Positions 2,816 to 50,646 of a stretch of 64,000 nucleotides of DNA are shown one piece after another. The notes below the pieces were generated by a model. The model did not search any database. It saw nothing but the letters and a program-made list of their open reading frames with translations, and was not told where the DNA came from. The position numbers and the translations under genes are program-made. How positions within the stretch are numbered: the stretch's first letter is position 1; every line of letters starts with the position of its first letter. Source of the stretch: an uncultured virus (IMG/VR IMGVR_UViG_3300033149_003138) (lineage: Duplodnaviria > Heunggongvirae > Uroviricota > Caudoviricetes). Where the stretch lies: the IMG/VR virus record IMGVR_UViG_3300033149_003138; one strand, written 5' to 3'.

Positions 2816-3452
2816 CCTTCTGCTGGTGTCCCCCGTAGCCGTCTATGGGGGTAGCATACCAGACATAACAAACTTGAAGTCTGACCTGCTTATGGATGGG
2901 GTTCTTCCTGAAGGTGAACCCATACCTTTTACCGCTTATTTCCGTGACTCTGATGGAGGCGTTCAGGTTCAGAACGTCTTCGTGAACATAAGTTTCTCAG
3001 GCAAGCAACTGATACGGCTACAGTATTACTACGATGATTGGACTGTTCTTGAGGGAAACAAGTATTGTTACATTCACCATGCAGGGTCAAGGGTTGATGG
3101 AGATGTCAAGATTCTTAACTTTACCGTGGTCTTCAGACAGCTTCCCTTCATCCAGCCCCCAAATCCTCCACAGAAATACGTTGAGTTGGAGTTGGCTTTG
3201 AAGGCTCTGGATTCCACTGGTCTCGAAACGCAGTGGTGCTATTATCTCAGAGAAGTACAGCTAACTAGGGTTATCGAATCAGAACCCACAGACTCAGAGA
3301 TAAGACAGGACTACAACGATGTTGGTTACGTGCTTCTTTTTCTTCTCATTCCAGCCATTGCAGTCATCGTTATCCTGTATGGGATGAGCAGAAAAAGGAA
3401 AAGAACCTACGACCTGATTCCTACACCAGACCCATACACTTTTAACCCTTAA
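2769..3452 (+). CDS. Membrane-anchored exported protein
   Basis: N-terminal hydrophobic signal, beta-rich middle, C-terminal TM followed by RKRKR. Confidence 0.65.
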   Translation: MRNPSTSILLLRLSISLLLVSPVAVYGGSIPDITNLKSDLLMDGVLPEGEPIPFTAYFRDSDGGVQVQNVFVNISFSGKQLIRLQYYYDDWTVLEGNKYCYIHHAGSRVDGDVKILNFTVVFRQLPFIQPPNPPQKYVELELALKALDSTGLETQWCYYLREVQLTRVIESEPTDSEIRQDYNDVGYVLLFLLIPAIAVIVILYGMSRKRKRTYDLIPTPDPYTFNP

Positions 3453-3458
3453 AAGCAA

Positions 3459-3482
3459 AAATAGTTTTAATGGCTTCATCTC
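3459..3482 (+). promoter_or_regulatory. Degenerate class A promoter motif
   Basis: AAATAGTTTTAATGGCTTCATCTC resembles TTATAGTTTTGGTGCCTTCATCTC. Confidence 0.45.
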
Positions 3483-3703
3483 GTATCGATTACTCGGAAT
3501 ATACGATGATGATGATCGTCTACGTAATTCTCTATGCTGGAGTAATGTATGTGGTCTACCTGATGTTTGGTCAACGGGTAAGCATGGAGGAAACCGTGGC
3601 AATGGCAATAAGCATAGTCGTGACATCCGTCATATTCACCATGTTAATTATCAACCTATACCGAGCAAAAGTCATCAAAACAAATCCAGCAATTCTAAGC
3701 TGA
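3470..3703 (+). CDS. Small two-TM membrane protein (true start probably downstream, ~3506)
   Basis: Two hydrophobic segments. The annotated ATG lies inside the promoter motif. Confidence 0.55.
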   Translation: MASSRIDYSEYTMMMIVYVILYAGVMYVVYLMFGQRVSMEETVAMAISIVVTSVIFTMLIINLYRAKVIKTNPAILS

Positions 3704-3715
3704 CAATTCACGCTT

Positions 3716-3741
3716 GTTATTTAATACCACAATCGCTATAA
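3716..3741 (+). promoter_or_regulatory. Class C promoter (13-bp operator variant + ACAATCGCTATAA)
   Basis: GTTATTTAATACCACAATCGCTATAA, recurring at 9971 and 21000; ATG at 3769. Confidence 0.65.
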
Positions 3742-3768
3742 ACTGGTACGTCGTAACCATTATCATCG

Positions 3769-3966
3769 ATGTCTCAGCACAAGGTAAGGTTTGTTAAATT
3801 CAAAAAAAGAGATGATGAAGATGACTGGTTCAAAGTCTTCGTCACGATGCCTGAGAAAAACTTGAATGACCACTACTTTACCATAGTGCCCCAGCAATAC
3901 GTTGACGCTATAAACGAGATTTTCACGCTTCTGGATTTTGAGATCACCATAGAAGAAGAGACATAA
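3769..3966 (+). CDS. Hypothetical protein
   Basis: 65-aa ORF just downstream of the class C promoter. Confidence 0.55.
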   Translation: MSQHKVRFVKFKKRDDEDDWFKVFVTMPEKNLNDHYFTIVPQQYVDAINEIFTLLDFEITIEEET

Positions 3967-4031
3967 CTGGTATCTAATACCATAAACCTTTTATATGATA
4001 CACAGTGTATCAATTTCTGAGTAAGTATGGC
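3967..4031 (+). promoter_or_regulatory. Class B promoter: GGTATCTAATACC, TTTTATA box, TGATACACAGTGTATCA, GAGTAAGT-ATG
   Basis: Near-identical ~63-bp block at 14531 and 23007, each ending in ATGGC. Confidence 0.8.
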
Positions 4032-4377
4032 TGAAAGAGACTTACGAGAGCAGAGGAAGAACACCTCAAGAGTTTTCCCTATGCGCATGCGTAGATTCGT
4101 GAACGAAGATGAATTACCTCATTGGGTGAGACAGCTTCGCAGGATAGCTAAAGACGGGATTCTGGAAAAAGAGAACCGAATGCAGTATTTCTGGGAACAC
4201 ACACGATCTGAAGATTCCTTCAACGTAATACGTGAAGCACTACAGCTATTCGCAGAGATCGATGAGGTTCTGGTGGAATGGGTGCCCTCTGACGAAGACA
4301 TAGGCTTCTGGAGTCAGGAACCAGACGGACATAGAACCGTGGAACCTTACAATCTGGAAGATATGGGGAAATTCTAA
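4027..4377 (+). CDS. Hypothetical protein
   Basis: First gene after the class B promoter. Confidence 0.65.
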   Translation: MAERDLREQRKNTSRVFPMRMRRFVNEDELPHWVRQLRRIAKDGILEKENRMQYFWEHTRSEDSFNVIREALQLFAEIDEVLVEWVPSDEDIGFWSQEPDGHRTVEPYNLEDMGKF

Positions 4378-46695: not shown

Positions 46696-47079
46696 ATGGG
46701 TAGGAAGCGTAAGTCCCCAGTCAAACATACGGTTCATACGAAGCATCCTCGATATAACGTGCCTCAGTATCCTAGAGGCTCTGGATTTCCCCCTGTTTCT
46801 CAAGTTAAGCGTCGCGACACGGACTCCTTTATTCGTTATGTTAAAACACAGGTTATAGACGTATTACAGCCTTTTTACGTTGTTTTCAATAACCCGAAAG
46901 TGGGGGACATACCTGTAAACGCTGACGATTATAGTGGGGCACGCTATCTTCTAAGCTATTATGAACCTGATCAGCCTAATGCTATAAATAATGTATTTTA
47001 TGACCCATATCATAACGTGGTTGTAGAGTATAGTGATGATTGGTCTCATTCTACTGAATGGAAAGACCTCAATCTCTAA
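46696..47079 (+). CDS. HPRY-leader protein 17
   Basis: MGRKRKSPVKHTVHTKHPRYNVPQYPRG. Confidence 0.8.
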   Translation: MGRKRKSPVKHTVHTKHPRYNVPQYPRGSGFPPVSQVKRRDTDSFIRYVKTQVIDVLQPFYVVFNNPKVGDIPVNADDYSGARYLLSYYEPDQPNAINNVFYDPYHNVVVEYSDDWSHSTEWKDLNL

Positions 47080-47083
47080 ATTA

Positions 47084-47200
47084 TCATTGATGAACTTCCT
47101 GAATCTCCCAGCTTCTACGATAAGCTGTTAAATAAAAGAAGAATTTGATTCAACTTGTATCAGCTTACCGATAATCTCTTATAGTTTCGATGCCTCCACT
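47084..47200 (+). repeat. Imperfect direct repeat, right copy
   Basis: TCATTGATGAACTT...TGATTCAACTTGTATCAGCTTACCGATAATCTCTTATAGTTTCGATGCCTCCACT. Confidence 0.8.
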
Positions 47201-47287
47201 TGTTAATTCACATCGGGTTGAACTATGTTCATATTGAGTTGAACTGGGGTCGATAAAATTTTTTATATTATTAAGGAGTTATAAACT

Positions 47288-47560
47288 CTAGCCCCGTACC
47301 AAGGAGTGCTTGGGGCAGAACTCGGTTGCACTCTTCGGGTTCTAGCCACGCGGGGAAGCCGTTGACTCGGGGAGAGCAACGTTCAGGGCAGGGCGTATCG
47401 TGAGCCTCGAAAATGAGGTAATATGCGTATCCCAGCAAGCCCATCCGTAAAGAGCCCCGATGAGGCATTTTTCCTCTTGTGCGGATATGTTATTCTCTGG
47501 GGAAGCAGGTTTACCAAAACACCATATACTGTTGAGGTAGACCGACAGATACACGCCTCT
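47288..47560 (+). ncRNA. Candidate structured non-coding RNA, family unknown
   Basis: GC-rich and lacking a long + strand ORF. Six hand-found helices with G-U pairs on the + strand. TATA-like box at ~47259-47268. Confidence 0.55.
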
Positions 47561-47612
47561 TAATGATATTTTACGGCAACTGCTATAAGCGTTATAATAT
47601 AACCTACCTCTA

Positions 47613-47882
47613 ATGAGGCGTGGTGAGAGGGTTCAATGTTTTCACTGTGGCTGGATAAGGTATTTAGATCAACCTGAACCCGCAAACCCGAATACATGGG
47701 ATCATGACAAGTATTTCTTCTGTTCTAACTCACGCCATAACGAGATAAGAAGAGACATGTTCAGCGTATATTGTAAGAGACACTGTAATGACTTCAGGGA
47801 CAGAAAGAGTGAAATTCCTGTACAGGCACCCTCTGAAAGATACCCTAAAGGAACCATAATGGAAATGACTGATACGATGTGA
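47613..47882 (+). CDS. Cys-rich Zn-binding protein
   Basis: CFHC...C...C..HC; preceded by GCTATAA promoter. Confidence 0.5.
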   Translation: MRRGERVQCFHCGWIRYLDQPEPANPNTWDHDKYFFCSNSRHNEIRRDMFSVYCKRHCNDFRDRKSEIPVQAPSERYPKGTIMEMTDTM

Positions 47883-49903
47883 GTCAGATGAATCCGCTTG
47901 AGAAGAATAAGCTGATCCTTGGCGATTGCATAGAAGTCATGCAAACATGGGAACCAAACACAGTTGACTGCATCGTAACTGATCCACCCTATTTCCTGTT
48001 AAATGATAGTGGGAAAGGATTTATGGGCAAGGAATGGGACAGCGTATCTGATCAGAATTGGCAGAGCCTTAAATATCACACAGGATTTGCCCTGTTTGTG
48101 GTGAAGGCTTTGTCGTTGCTACAAGTCGGCTTAAACACGGAAGAGGAAAATACTGTTCAAGAAAATGCCAATATGAAGCAAGAAGAAAACAAAGTAAACC
48201 AAACACAAACTGCATCGTATGTGGAAAACCAATCCATCGTACTAAGCCCACAAAATATGGATCAGTCTGTTCAAGGGCTTGTCTTTACGAGGGAAAGCGT
48301 AGAGGGATTATTGGGCGTGATGTTCAAAAACCGTATAATCGAAAAGCAACCTCTAAGCCTACCAGAAAATGTCTTGTTTGTGATACCGACTACATACCTA
48401 GAAAAAAGACTCAAAAATATTGTTCCAGATCATGTTTTGAAAAAGCACATCGAAGAAATATGCGAGGGAAAAACAATCCATCTTACATCGATGGAAGAAG
48501 CAAAAATAAACGCTGTTACAGAGGCGATGATTGGGAAGAACAGCGAAAGAAATGCTACAAACGAGATCACTATACCTGTCAGGTCTGTGGAAAACATTGT
48601 GGAAGAAAAGAGATACAGGCTCATCACATCATACCCTACAAAGAGAAAGGAACTAACGACTTATCTAACCTCATTACTCTATGCAATGTATGTCACGCCC
48701 AAGTCGAGGCAGGAACTATACAAATCCCTCTGCTTTGACAGCCTATTTCCAGCCTTCATCGAGATGTATCGTGTGTTGAAGCATGGTGCTTTGGCTTTCG
48801 TTATGAGCAGTCCACGTCAGGACTTAATGTGGAGGATGTGCAAGCTATTAGAGGACACAGGATTCGTTCTCACGCAGAGCTACTTAAACTGGATATACAA
48901 AACAGGTATGCCAAAAGGCATGAATGTCAGTAAAGGTATAGATAAAAAATTAGGTTTGCTTTCTGAACGAGAGATCATTAGTTACTACACCATTCCTCCA
49001 GATTCGGATGCAGGGAACGCAGGTATGAACTATTCAGATATGCCTATCAATGGAAATGTTTACCAAGACCCTCATAGAGATACTAGACGTGCTGAACTGA
49101 CAAAACCTGCCTCTAAGGAGGCTGAACAATGGGATGGTTGGTATAGCATTGCTGGTTTGAAACCTGCTCATGAACCCATTTTGATGGTGTATAAGCCTCT
49201 ATCAGAACCTACGATTGTTGATAATGTTTTGAAGCATGGTGTTGGGGCTATTAACGTTGATGCCTGTAGAATACCCATAGTAGAGAGGGACACTACAAGC
49301 CGACCAAACATATTCGGTAAAAAATATGAGGAGGGAGATCATGTTTACGGTCAAGGTTTAGGCTATGGTGTTCCCATGCTCTCAGAAAAAGGTCGTTTTC
49401 CTGCCACTGTTCTTGTCTCTGATAGGGCAATAGACACTGGAAAACAAAGTAAAAGTGGTGCAAAACTTCCCCACCATAAGATGATTAAAAAAGCAAACGT
49501 CTACGGTAAATATAATGCAATTACAGGTTACAATTATCCTGAAGATGTTGGTGATCAGAGCAGGTATTTTGACCTTGATGCATGGGCAAAGCATCATGGG
49601 ATTCTCGATGTGCCTAAGCCTTCTCCATCTGAACGGGATCAGGGTCTTGACGGGAGGAATAAGCATCCGACGGTGAAGCCTGTTCATCTTATGGCTTATC
49701 TTGTTGCTTTGGGGTGTCCTGTGGGTGGTGTGGTGCTTGATCCTTTCATGGGAAGTGGCACTACCTGTATGGCTTGCAGGACGCTGGGGAGAAACTACGT
49801 TGGTATCGAGATTGAAGAAGATACGTATAATGATGCTGTGAAACGTGTTTCCTCTGTGGTTCCTTCTCTGTTTTTCTATGATGAGACGATGAAAGATGAG
49901 TGA
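47879..49903 (+). CDS. DNA N4-cytosine/N6-adenine methyltransferase (beta-type motif order) with a 233-codon insertion
   Basis: ILGDCIEVM, VDCIVTDPPY, RVLKHG, LKPAHEPI, HPTVKPVHLM, VVLDPFMGSGTT. Confidence 0.9.
   Translation: MSQMNPLEKNKLILGDCIEVMQTWEPNTVDCIVTDPPYFLLNDSGKGFMGKEWDSVSDQNWQSLKYHTGFALFVVKALSLLQVGLNTEEENTVQENANMKQEENKVNQTQTASYVENQSIVLSPQNMDQSVQGLVFTRESVEGLLGVMFKNRIIEKQPLSLPENVLFVIPTTYLEKRLKNIVPDHVLKKHIEEICEGKTIHLTSMEEAKINAVTEAMIGKNSERNATNEITIPVRSVENIVEEKRYRLITSYPTKRKELTTYLTSLLYAMYVTPKSRQELYKSLCFDSLFPAFIEMYRVLKHGALAFVMSSPRQDLMWRMCKLLEDTGFVLTQSYLNWIYKTGMPKGMNVSKGIDKKLGLLSEREIISYYTIPPDSDAGNAGMNYSDMPINGNVYQDPHRDTRRAELTKPASKEAEQWDGWYSIAGLKPAHEPILMVYKPLSEPTIVDNVLKHGVGAINVDACRIPIVERDTTSRPNIFGKKYEEGDHVYGQGLGYGVPMLSEKGRFPATVLVSDRAIDTGKQSKSGAKLPHHKMIKKANVYGKYNAITGYNYPEDVGDQSRYFDLDAWAKHHGILDVPKPSPSERDQGLDGRNKHPTVKPVHLMAYLVALGCPVGGVVLDPFMGSGTTCMACRTLGRNYVGIEIEEDTYNDAVKRVSSVVPSLFFYDETMKDE
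48073..48738 (+). CDS. Zn-finger-repeat HNH endonuclease nested out of frame inside the methyltransferase gene
   Basis: Frame is open 48073-48738 with three CxxC...CSRxC repeats and RDHYTCQVCG...AHHIIP...NLITLCNVCH. The first ATG is only at 48460. Confidence 0.75.
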   Translation: MSHRICPVCGEGFVVATSRLKHGRGKYCSRKCQYEARRKQSKPNTNCIVCGKPIHRTKPTKYGSVCSRACLYEGKRRGIIGRDVQKPYNRKATSKPTRKCLVCDTDYIPRKKTQKYCSRSCFEKAHRRNMRGKNNPSYIDGRSKNKRCYRGDDWEEQRKKCYKRDHYTCQVCGKHCGRKEIQAHHIIPYKEKGTNDLSNLITLCNVCHAQVEAGTIQIPLL

Positions 49904-50465
49904 TGTTGAGATCACGAAGAAGCTGACGAAGATCGGTATGCTCTACTTGAAGTCTAACGGGTGTTTCATCGTTGCTCCAGAGGCTAAGGTTCGCAGGACT
50001 ATGGGTTCTCTTGTACCTGATGATCTTGACAACCACAAGATCATTGACTTGCTGGGGGTGGGCAAGAAGTACATCCCATATGATAAGCAGGTAGAGGATG
50101 AACGTGGTTATAGAAAGACCTTCTTTGAGATATTGAGAGGCGTTGAGATTAAGGTTTCTCGTTCTGACTTCAAGAGGGGCTTCATCCAGAGTGGATGTAA
50201 CTATCACTACTTGATGTTTCCCAAAGGTCTCATTGAGAGAGATGAGGTTCCAACGGGGGTTGGGGTGGTGTCCGTTGACATTGACTCTTTCATGTGGTCA
50301 AAATGGGGAACTAGGTTGTATCTCCACGGCGTCGAGACTTTACGGAGACCACGGTTTCAAAAGATCAGTGATAGAGACTTTAACCATTCTGTTCGTCACA
50401 TAGGTAAGCTGTGTTCTGATCAGATGATCAGGTGGGCACGAGATGACCTTAGAGAAAAGCGGTGA
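49896..50465 (+). CDS. MmcB-like PD-(D/E)XK nuclease
   Basis: IIDLLGV...GVEIKVSRSDFKRG...CNYHYLMFP. Confidence 0.7.
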   Translation: MSDVEITKKLTKIGMLYLKSNGCFIVAPEAKVRRTMGSLVPDDLDNHKIIDLLGVGKKYIPYDKQVEDERGYRKTFFEILRGVEIKVSRSDFKRGFIQSGCNYHYLMFPKGLIERDEVPTGVGVVSVDIDSFMWSKWGTRLYLHGVETLRRPRFQKISDRDFNHSVRHIGKLCSDQMIRWARDDLREKR

Positions 50466-50646
50466 TATTGCCGTCTATAGTCTTGATGAGGTCTTCTACG
50501 ACGCTAGGGCTAGGGATGGGACTTGGTGTACGATGCCTTACGACAAGACAGGTGAGAGGGCTGACGGCACACCCATCTTCTCACACCCCGATGGATGCCC
50601 CAATTTCCCTAAATATGTGAAGACTGTAAAGAAAAACGTCTGTTAG
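50443..50646 (+). pseudogene. Probable truncated metal-binding (DUF2284-like) gene fragment
   Basis: WCTMPY...HPDGCPNF, then an abrupt end where the sequence turns AT-rich. Confidence 0.3.

Follow-up and report, generated by a model that had tools for sequence, protein, structure and literature searches.

How can a complete nuclease gene lie inside a DNA methyltransferase gene whose own reading frame stays open from end to end? This question is raised by a 64,000-nucleotide (nt) stretch of DNA from an uncultured virus (IMG/VR record IMGVR_UViG_3300033149_003138), here called the window. An initial annotation had recognized in it a methyltransferase open reading frame (ORF) with 233 extra, stop-free codons after the residues GKEWDS and, in a second frame of the same DNA, an HNH endonuclease, and had interpreted the whole as a homing-type element that avoids damage to its host gene not by splicing but through a host frame that stays open. 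The core of that proposal is supported here by the avoidance of stop codons, the relatives of the element, its disjunct distribution, its co-transferred flank and the lack of intron and intein features. We consider it probable (about 0.8) that the element is a homing-type HNH cassette in a viral methyltransferase gene, which comprises a 17-codon loop replacement and a nuclease gene in the -1 frame, and which is unspliced while the host frame is kept open.

A nuclease gene within an open methyltransferase frame

The host ORF begins with a GTG that overlaps the stop codon of the ORF upstream and leads without a single stop from TDPPYFLLNDSGKGFMGKEWDS, which ends in GKEWDS, through the 233 codons to LFPAFIEMYRVLKHG and then to DPFMGSGTT (Table 1). 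The Pfam family PF01555 (N6_N4_Mtase) matches the encoded protein at residues 287-654 only (E 1.8e-30, 107 bits). Catalytic motif IV is N-terminal to motif I (FxGxG), which is the order of beta-class N6-adenine/N4-cytosine enzymes, and the ORF is predicted to encode a beta-class N6/N4 DNA methyltransferase. Both DPPY and FxGxG are intact in all six aligned insert-bearing sequences. The 233 codons are an insertion, given that exactly 12 residues separate WDx from RVLK in 100 of 100 close relatives matched by a regular expression. They are unlike any Pfam family, as a search of the insert in the methyltransferase frame gave no family match. In that frame the insert starts with VSDQ, ends with CFDS before a Leu, and contains Cys only twice, each time alone. 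The source annotation at this locus (P0005, 405 residues; 48686-49903) begins at M270, within the insert; neither the HNH frame nor the 674-codon frame in its entire length was annotated.

The second frame, which is also on the plus strand, encodes three zinc ribbons followed by an HNH domain, as had been noted and as was confirmed by both the reading of the ORF and the match to PF01844. Its product is predicted to be a PF01844 His-Me finger nuclease with a zinc-bound beta-beta-alpha core. The HNHs nested at the same site in two related loci, L001 and L010, are 58 and 53% identical to it, respectively, and share all 22 of its 22 Cys/His positions. Its best matches among isolates are from haloarchaeal tailed viruses, at 26-30% identity.

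The open host frame across this nuclease gene is not due to chance. Relatives were sought with the HNH protein, a query without bias for an open host frame, and a script was used to examine 90 such loci, drawn from viral and metagenome collections. Both loci found at the site of the window's insert (L001 and L010) were nested in methyltransferase ORFs that are open throughout. The host frame contains no stops in the window, L001 or L010, and the third frame contains 16, 27 and 24, respectively. When the HNH protein was held fixed and its synonymous codons were redrawn 20,000 times from the codon usage of the window, the probability of zero stops was 0.0008 for the window (mean 5.4 stops) and 0.00085 for L001. 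Permutation of each element's own synonymous codons yielded 0.00075 for the window, 0.015 for L001 and 0.099 for L010. This second test is the more conservative because the codon usage of L001 and L010 is already depleted of stop-prone codons. The decisive contrast is offered by the relatives that stand free or break the host frame (L011, L012, L013, L023, L024, L002 and L004): in all seven of them, the equivalent frame is interrupted by 7-14 stops. Selection thus acts against stops in the host frame. Amino-acid-level selection on the in-frame peptide was also considered and rejected: among the window, L001 and L010, identity over the insert was 35-55% in the host frame, not above the 36-49% of the third-frame control, and 53-59% in the HNH frame. 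Our claim is therefore limited to selection for an open host frame and does not extend to the sequence of the peptide.

The family is not confined to these three copies. Four read-through methyltransferases (692-735 residues) were retrieved when the in-frame insert served as the query of a word-index search, and a phmmer search with the read-through peptide over 1.84 billion cluster representatives (clusters at 50% identity) found 56 representatives at E<=1e-3, 35 of them at E<=1e-10. Most of the 56 are 570-950 residues long, with the insert at residues ~50-285. As these members are known as proteins alone, the residues of the -1 frame were inferred as encodable from pairs of neighboring amino acids. 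The pattern CxxC..HH..CxxCH is encodable in the -1 frame of 52 of the 56 members, in the +1 frame of none of the 56, and in the -1 frame of 1 of the 119 nearest methyltransferase relatives, which are insert-free. Of the 92-94 HNH residues that the window, L001 and L010 share without exception, 81-86 are encodable in P0001-P0004 (9-25 in shifted controls), as are 21-22 of 21-22 Cys/His positions.

These results also bear on whether the methyltransferase gene was killed or split by the insertion of the nuclease, with its open frame a matter of luck or recent history. That the source gene call begins inside the insert would fit a dead gene, as would the frequent dispensability of phage orphan methylases, which is stated for the relatives of mycobacteriophage ShiLan (PMC11855218). 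The three stop-free copies differ, however, at 29-46% of third-codon positions, whereas the non-nested relatives have 7-14 stops. The 56 read-through representatives likewise argue against a dead gene, and every aligned insert-bearer retains the catalytic motifs, in cores that have diverged to 34-55% identity. We regard a dead or split methyltransferase gene as extremely unlikely.

Table 1. Positions of the features of the nested element in the window, and of four inteins with overprinted nuclease genes in related loci.
Feature	Position	Strand	Remarks
Beta-class N6/N4 DNA methyltransferase ORF (predicted), host gene	47879..49903	+	674 residues, open across insert; PF01555; best solved matches CcrM 6pbd, DpnA 5hek, MboIIA 1g60
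Catalytic motif IV, DPPY, residues 35-38	47981..47992	+	D35, P36, P37 invariant in 8-sequence alignment
Co-transferred flank FLLNDSGKGFMGKEWDS, 17 codons	47993..48043	+	Loop exceeds that of insert-free relatives by 6 residues; from comparison of loop length and identity
Left copy of 9/10 direct repeat, GACAGCGTAT	48038..48047	+	Count at chance level
Insert, 233 codons in methyltransferase frame	48044..48742	+	Stop-free, family-less (Pfam), low-confidence fold
HNH endonuclease frame (predicted), -1 relative to host	48073..48738	+	221 codons + TGA (48736-48738), open stop-to-stop
Zinc ribbon 1, C6, C9 ... C28, C32 (CPVC..CSRKC)	48088..48168	+	Cys invariant in window, L001, L010
Zinc ribbon 2, C47, C50 ... 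C66, C70 (CIVC..CSRAC)	48211..48282	+	Cys invariant in window, L001, L010
Zinc ribbon 3, C100, C103 ... C117, C121 (CLVC..CSRSC)	48370..48435	+	Cys invariant in window, L001, L010
Sole canonical start in HNH frame	48460..48462	+	Product would be 92 residues, without zinc ribbons
HNH catalytic domain, CxxC..HH..N..CxxCH	48577..48705	+	PF01844, E 4.4e-13, residues 169-211; phage GVE2 HNH 5h0m, E 5e-5
Right copy of 9/10 direct repeat, GACAGCCTAT	48737..48746	+	Overlaps HNH stop TGA
S-adenosylmethionine-binding motif I, DPFMGSGTT, residues 621-629	49739..49765	+	D621, P622, F623, G625, S626, G627, T629 invariant
Intein	L006:1550-4036		HNH 3175-3795
Intein	L045:1864-4821		ORF 3441-4256
Intein	L050 + L051:2462-4861		HNH 3105-3944
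Intein	L010:279-2591		Second HNH 1393-2106

Splicing, frameshifting and the start of the nuclease

Homing endonuclease genes are usually carried by introns or inteins, and the open frame might thus be a by-product of an insert that is removed by an unrecognized kind of splicing, either as an RNA intron of unknown class or by non-canonical protein splicing. Such splicing would also agree with the presence of related HNH genes in L010, L006, L045 and L050, where they lie out of frame in inteins whose splicing needs an open frame. Nevertheless, a search of 47000-50500 against Rfam at E up to 10 found no intron, only sub-threshold microRNA and small nucleolar RNA noise, and L010, L011 and L013 had no Rfam intron match either. 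The RNA fold of 48000-48790 was not better than that of shuffled sequences (z -0.64), so neither Rfam nor folding indicates a recognizable self-splicing intron. Because the HNH ORF occupies 666 of the 699 bases and leaves 33 outside, the insert could accommodate neither an intron core nor a Hint domain. The lack of intein termini reported in the initial annotation holds (V...S|L), and the insert has no Hint or intein match in Pfam. An open frame, moreover, would not be selected under RNA splicing. Unrecognized splicing is, in our judgment, unlikely.

It had also been suggested that the insert may be excised at the RNA or DNA level, and a 9/10 direct repeat had been described as bounding it. 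The positions of that repeat, its spacing of 699 bp and its overlap with the TGA of the HNH frame are as reported. As a mark of the boundary it does not stand, because repeats of this kind occur at the level of chance: 19 families of direct repeats of comparable quality are present in the same 821 bases, and ~9-10 pairs matching at 9/10 positions are expected by pair counting. No junction-flanking DNA repeat was found in L001 or L010, and the interpretation of the repeat as a target-site duplication is unsupported. An 11/12 repeat, CACCCTATTTCC/CAGCCTATTTCC (47985/48739), was likewise discarded; it is at chance level and, as its spacing of 754 is not a multiple of 3, out of frame. Deletion of one 699-bp unit had been stated to restore a compact methyltransferase junction; the junction so formed lacks 3 residues in comparison with the closest insert-free relatives (WDS+LFPAFIEMY vs. 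WDK+ALPPxEAFxEMY).

The HNH frame of the window contains no ATG, GTG or TTG before 48460, exactly as had been reported. Together with the exact -1 offset of this frame from the host frame, the absent start could be explained by production of the nuclease as a fusion, by ribosomes that shift by -1 out of the methyltransferase frame soon after 48073. By eye, however, no slippery heptamer (X XXY YYZ) was found between 48073 and the first CxxC. In addition, L001 and L010 have an ATG of their own at codon 3 of the nested HNH (YSMQI...), and the window differs from them there by a 9-nt gap placed exactly at the site of the ATG. According to the codon table, the Leu-Cys pair at this place in P0001-P0003 can also encode an ATG in the -1 frame. 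Frameshifting is therefore considered very unlikely, and neither it nor excision, both of which had been raised earlier, receives support from our analyses.

Under the cassette reading, the nuclease would be a separate product of internal initiation, at the ATG of codon 3 in the relatives. L001 (3955-3992) and L010 (440-476) also have GATAGTTTAAAT in common, 23 nt upstream of this ATG; a TATA-like box of archaeal type, from which a leaderless mRNA for the nuclease would be transcribed within the host gene, is a speculative reading of it. The window lacks both this box and the ATG, the latter lost in the 9-nt gap. Because the ATG of its relatives is absent, the nuclease of the window, which keeps all zinc-binding and catalytic residues, may be weakly expressed or silent: it might start at the ATA at 48073 or the ATT at 48085, or it may be freshly silenced. 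Weak expression from such a start, or recent silencing, is what the sequence suggests as probable.

Probable mobility and the co-transferred flank

The distribution of the element does not follow the phylogeny of its host gene. Over 439 trimmed columns of the methyltransferase core, with the 120 best of 5040 matches as relatives, identity to the window is 54-58% for the 39 members of the set closest to it, nearly all of which lack the insert (398-543 residues), and 36-40% for the other insert-bearers. In a FastTree phylogeny of 128 sequences, the window stands alone as a bearer of this insert among the 121 members of its clade (support 0.94), and the other bearers lie outside this clade, where they are interleaved with the insert-free L024.

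The gene itself is a mosaic. The 27 residues up to DPPY are identical to the window at 7-19 positions in its own insert-free clade (the value of 7 comes from row P0014, which has a shortened N-terminus) and at 9-13 in insert-bearers. The 17 residues from DPPY to the insert show the reverse affinity, with 8-9 identities in its own clade and 12-14 in insert-bearers, and the 70 residues past the insert return to 43-51 identities in its own clade vs. 17-32 in insert-bearers. Further analyses revealed a difference in length within the same 17 residues. The loop from DPPY to FMGK has 9 residues (FLxNxSGxG) in 6 of 6 insert-bearers matched by a regular expression, and likewise by eye in L010, and 3 residues in 100 of 100 matched insert-free relatives; 24 further sequences were not matched by the expression, and one row scored as an insert (P0061) is an artefact of it. 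Among the 39 members of the 56-member family with a readable N-terminus, the loop has 9 residues in 33, 10 in 2 and 3 in 4. Given the mosaic pattern and the co-inherited 9-residue loop, we place the start of the mobile unit directly after DPPY, at 47993.

The element looks mobile from this disjunct distribution over the host-gene phylogeny and from the mosaic gene, and the FLLNDSGKGFMGKEWDS flank is probably a replacement of the target region of the nuclease. Because the cassette carries a diverged replacement of the host loop, the target is suggested to lie in the DNA that codes for DPPY/FMGKxWD. We propose that the cassette consists of the 17-codon replacement of the motif IV loop, followed by the complete HNH gene, with its three zinc ribbons and HNH domain, in the -1 frame. 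The nuclease would presumably cut insert-free alleles near the region coding for DPPY/FMGKxWD, and repair would copy both cassette and flank into the cut allele. The cassette would stay unspliced, with selection keeping stops out of the methyltransferase frame across the nuclease gene. Because that frame is kept stop-free, the enzyme would be made as a single chain, which would carry a ~230-residue, probably unstructured loop between its DPPY loop and the next helix. In an AlphaFold2 model built from an 8-row alignment, pLDDT (the score predicted for the local distance difference test) is below 50 over residues 36-287, and several blocks of the core reach 70-88.

Several observations weigh against this account. 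The distribution taken alone may also fit precise loss of the insert instead of gain, and the sample in the tree is biased to the nearest relatives of the window. The 56-member sample is biased to open frames and misses broken copies because it was found with the read-through peptide, and the own-codon permutation of L010, taken singly, is non-significant. The AlphaFold2 model is poor overall (mean pLDDT 46, shallow alignment), and because of this it lends little weight to a disordered loop. The HNH frame of the window runs for 129 codons without a canonical start, and this copy may be inert. Finally, no RNA run with the stretch was found among public sequencing runs, and the sole run that matches it (DNA, 5% of words) covers just 49012-49205 and one 35-base piece at low identity, which is uninformative on the insert.

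Known systems, related loci and genomic context

I-HmuI and MobE represent the intron-encoded and free-standing HNH homing endonucleases, with extra DNA-binding modules, a conserved coding target and co-conversion of flanks. Such nucleases are found in self-splicing group I introns or between genes, in contrast to the element of the window, which would lie inside an unspliced coding frame.

A layout like that of the window was published in 2025 as the "ShiLan domain," an out-of-frame HNH in the DNA methylase gp65 of mycobacteriophage ShiLan (Arsenault, Gosselin & Gogarten 2025, PMC11855218). Gp65 belongs to the same methyltransferase family and has DPPYGLEFMGKDWD, GFPKS, LKPSYEP and NIDACRI in common with the window; its host frame is likewise stop-free through the insert, and its HNH with zinc ribbons is also in the -1 (third) frame. 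As described there, the ShiLan domain further resembles the window's element in that signatures of introns and inteins are absent, its distribution is disjunct and the fold predicted for the in-frame peptide is of low confidence. The sites differ, however: the ShiLan insert follows EPVCVAVKP, and that of the window follows WDS, 17 codons past DPPY. So do the nucleases, with PF13392 between two ribbons in ShiLan and PF01844 C-terminal to three ribbons in the window, and a tblastn search of ShiLan with the window HNH (E 1e-3) missed the gp65 insert and matched only gp107. ShiLan, moreover, is an actinophage and has a GTG 18 bp into the insert, whereas the window is metagenomic and probably from an archaeal virus-like element, and its copy is without a start codon. 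A co-transferred, length-variant flank is documented for the window. Judged from the sequences, the window element is not recognizable as a homologue of the ShiLan domain; it shares the layout, not the site or the HNH family.

The T4-like MobA/gene 60 cassette is an HNH homing cassette that enters a conserved gene with a diverged replacement of a host region, "HomR," that holds the target (bioRxiv 10.1101/2022.08.31.505936). In the terms of that account, the FLLNDSGKGFMGKEWDS patch of the window behaves like HomR. There, however, the host gene is described as split in two and joined by a 50-nt translational bypass, whereas the host gene of the window is one frame and needs no bypass.

Inteins with the endonuclease in another frame were the subject of a 2025 preprint. 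These, too, have a nuclease gene over a host-frame peptide that must stay open; in contrast, their junk peptide leaves by protein splicing, and the insert of the window has no Hint domain. Among the loci examined here, inteins with an HNH gene in another frame and an open intein frame were observed in a terminase, a tape-measure-like protein and a methyltransferase (Table 1). The Pfam family Intein_splicing matches L006, L045 and L050 at 34-52 bits, and the intein of L010, which shares its site with the intein of ShiLan gp65, was recognized by eye only. The ORFs nested in the inteins of L006, L050 and L010 match HNH_3 or HNH; that of L045 is without a Pfam match.

The methyltransferase family to which the window's enzyme belongs seems particularly prone to hidden nuclease genes. 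Among the close relatives of that enzyme, P0041, P0048 and P0065 have other read-through inserts of ~280 residues after LKPA.E...KPF, which is the site of the ShiLan domain, and P0056 has an insert at a third site, after GFPKAYDV. The -1 frame of these four inserts can encode two to three zinc ribbons and, in P0056, also an HNH motif. In every case screened, the hidden frame is -1. An extra variable insert of 100-150 residues, rich in Ser, Thr and Ile and without a family, lies between SER..GL and HPTVKP in L023 (4136-5713), L024 (3980-5602), P0004 and P0037.

Four diverged loci, L011 (1540-2320), L013 (170-870), L023 (3376-4150) and L104 (minus strand, 1127-2790 of the reverse complement), share one layout: a remnant methyltransferase N-terminus, a 2-ribbon HNH (46 residues and decayed in L104), and a second, full N-terminus that ends in TDPP before a TAA. 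The in-frame TAA and one further codon (TAACTT, TAACTA, TAACCC and TAACCA) precede YGLSFMGK... and an intact methyltransferase, and skipping these 6 nt restores DPPY. Purifying selection acts on both sides of the stop, with a ratio of nonsynonymous to synonymous substitution rates (dN/dS) of ~0.1-0.3 downstream, where dS is saturated. These loci look like miniature cassettes of the MobA/gene 60 type with a 6-nt coding gap that may be bypassed or read through. In L024 (3483-5602), the same 2-ribbon HNH lineage is free-standing, directly upstream of an intact insert-free methyltransferase, an arrangement that parallels the case of Sashimi/Tiff81 vs. Pacc40 described for the ShiLan relatives (PMC11855218).

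Tentatively, then, one HNH lineage may have adopted alternative lifestyles with the same methyltransferase, although we hold this to be doubtful: free-standing upstream of it (L024); MobA-like, with the N-terminus duplicated and a conserved 6-nt "TAAC NN" gap in DPPY that ribosomes would have to skip or read through (L011, L013, L023 and L104); and nested, with a cleavage-resistant flank and an open frame (the window). If so, the window element would be one of several solutions reached by a homing cassette, here with a 230-residue peptide in an active enzyme, possibly put to a use of its own, and no known programmed coding gap would be shorter than the one in this HNH lineage.

Elsewhere among the loci, an HNH gene in L007 (1-1682; HNH 482-1060) stands between two pieces of a terminase large subunit in different frames, and this terminase may be a split gene or contain an intron. 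In the window itself (1-64000), all real-looking ORFs of at least 120 residues are on the plus strand, and no transfer RNA genes were found. Pfam families were recognized in 5 of the 55 ORFs scanned (ParB-HTH, two glycosyltransferases, TrmB and DUF7342). A blastn search of the methyltransferase gene against GenBank phages gave no match, and a profile scan of genome contigs with the HNH alignment gave one distant match, in a Nannocystaceae metagenome-assembled genome, which is uninformative on the host. From its gene content the window is a very dark, probably archaeal virus-like element.

What is new here is the insertion site, the HNH family (PF01844), the probably archaeal virus-like host and the co-transferred flank. 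The element adds a large environmental lineage of at least 56 clusters (at 50% identity) to a kind of element described in 2025 for mycobacteriophages. For this lineage there is now a statistical demonstration that codon choice maintains the open host frame, and the cassette-borne replacement of adjoining host sequence points to the cut site of the nuclease. Because gene callers miss overprinted genes, the annotation of viral metagenomes probably underrepresents such methyltransferases and nucleases. The element also offers, in testable form, an example of a large peptide with no apparent constraint on its sequence that would be tolerated beside the catalytic loop of an enzyme.

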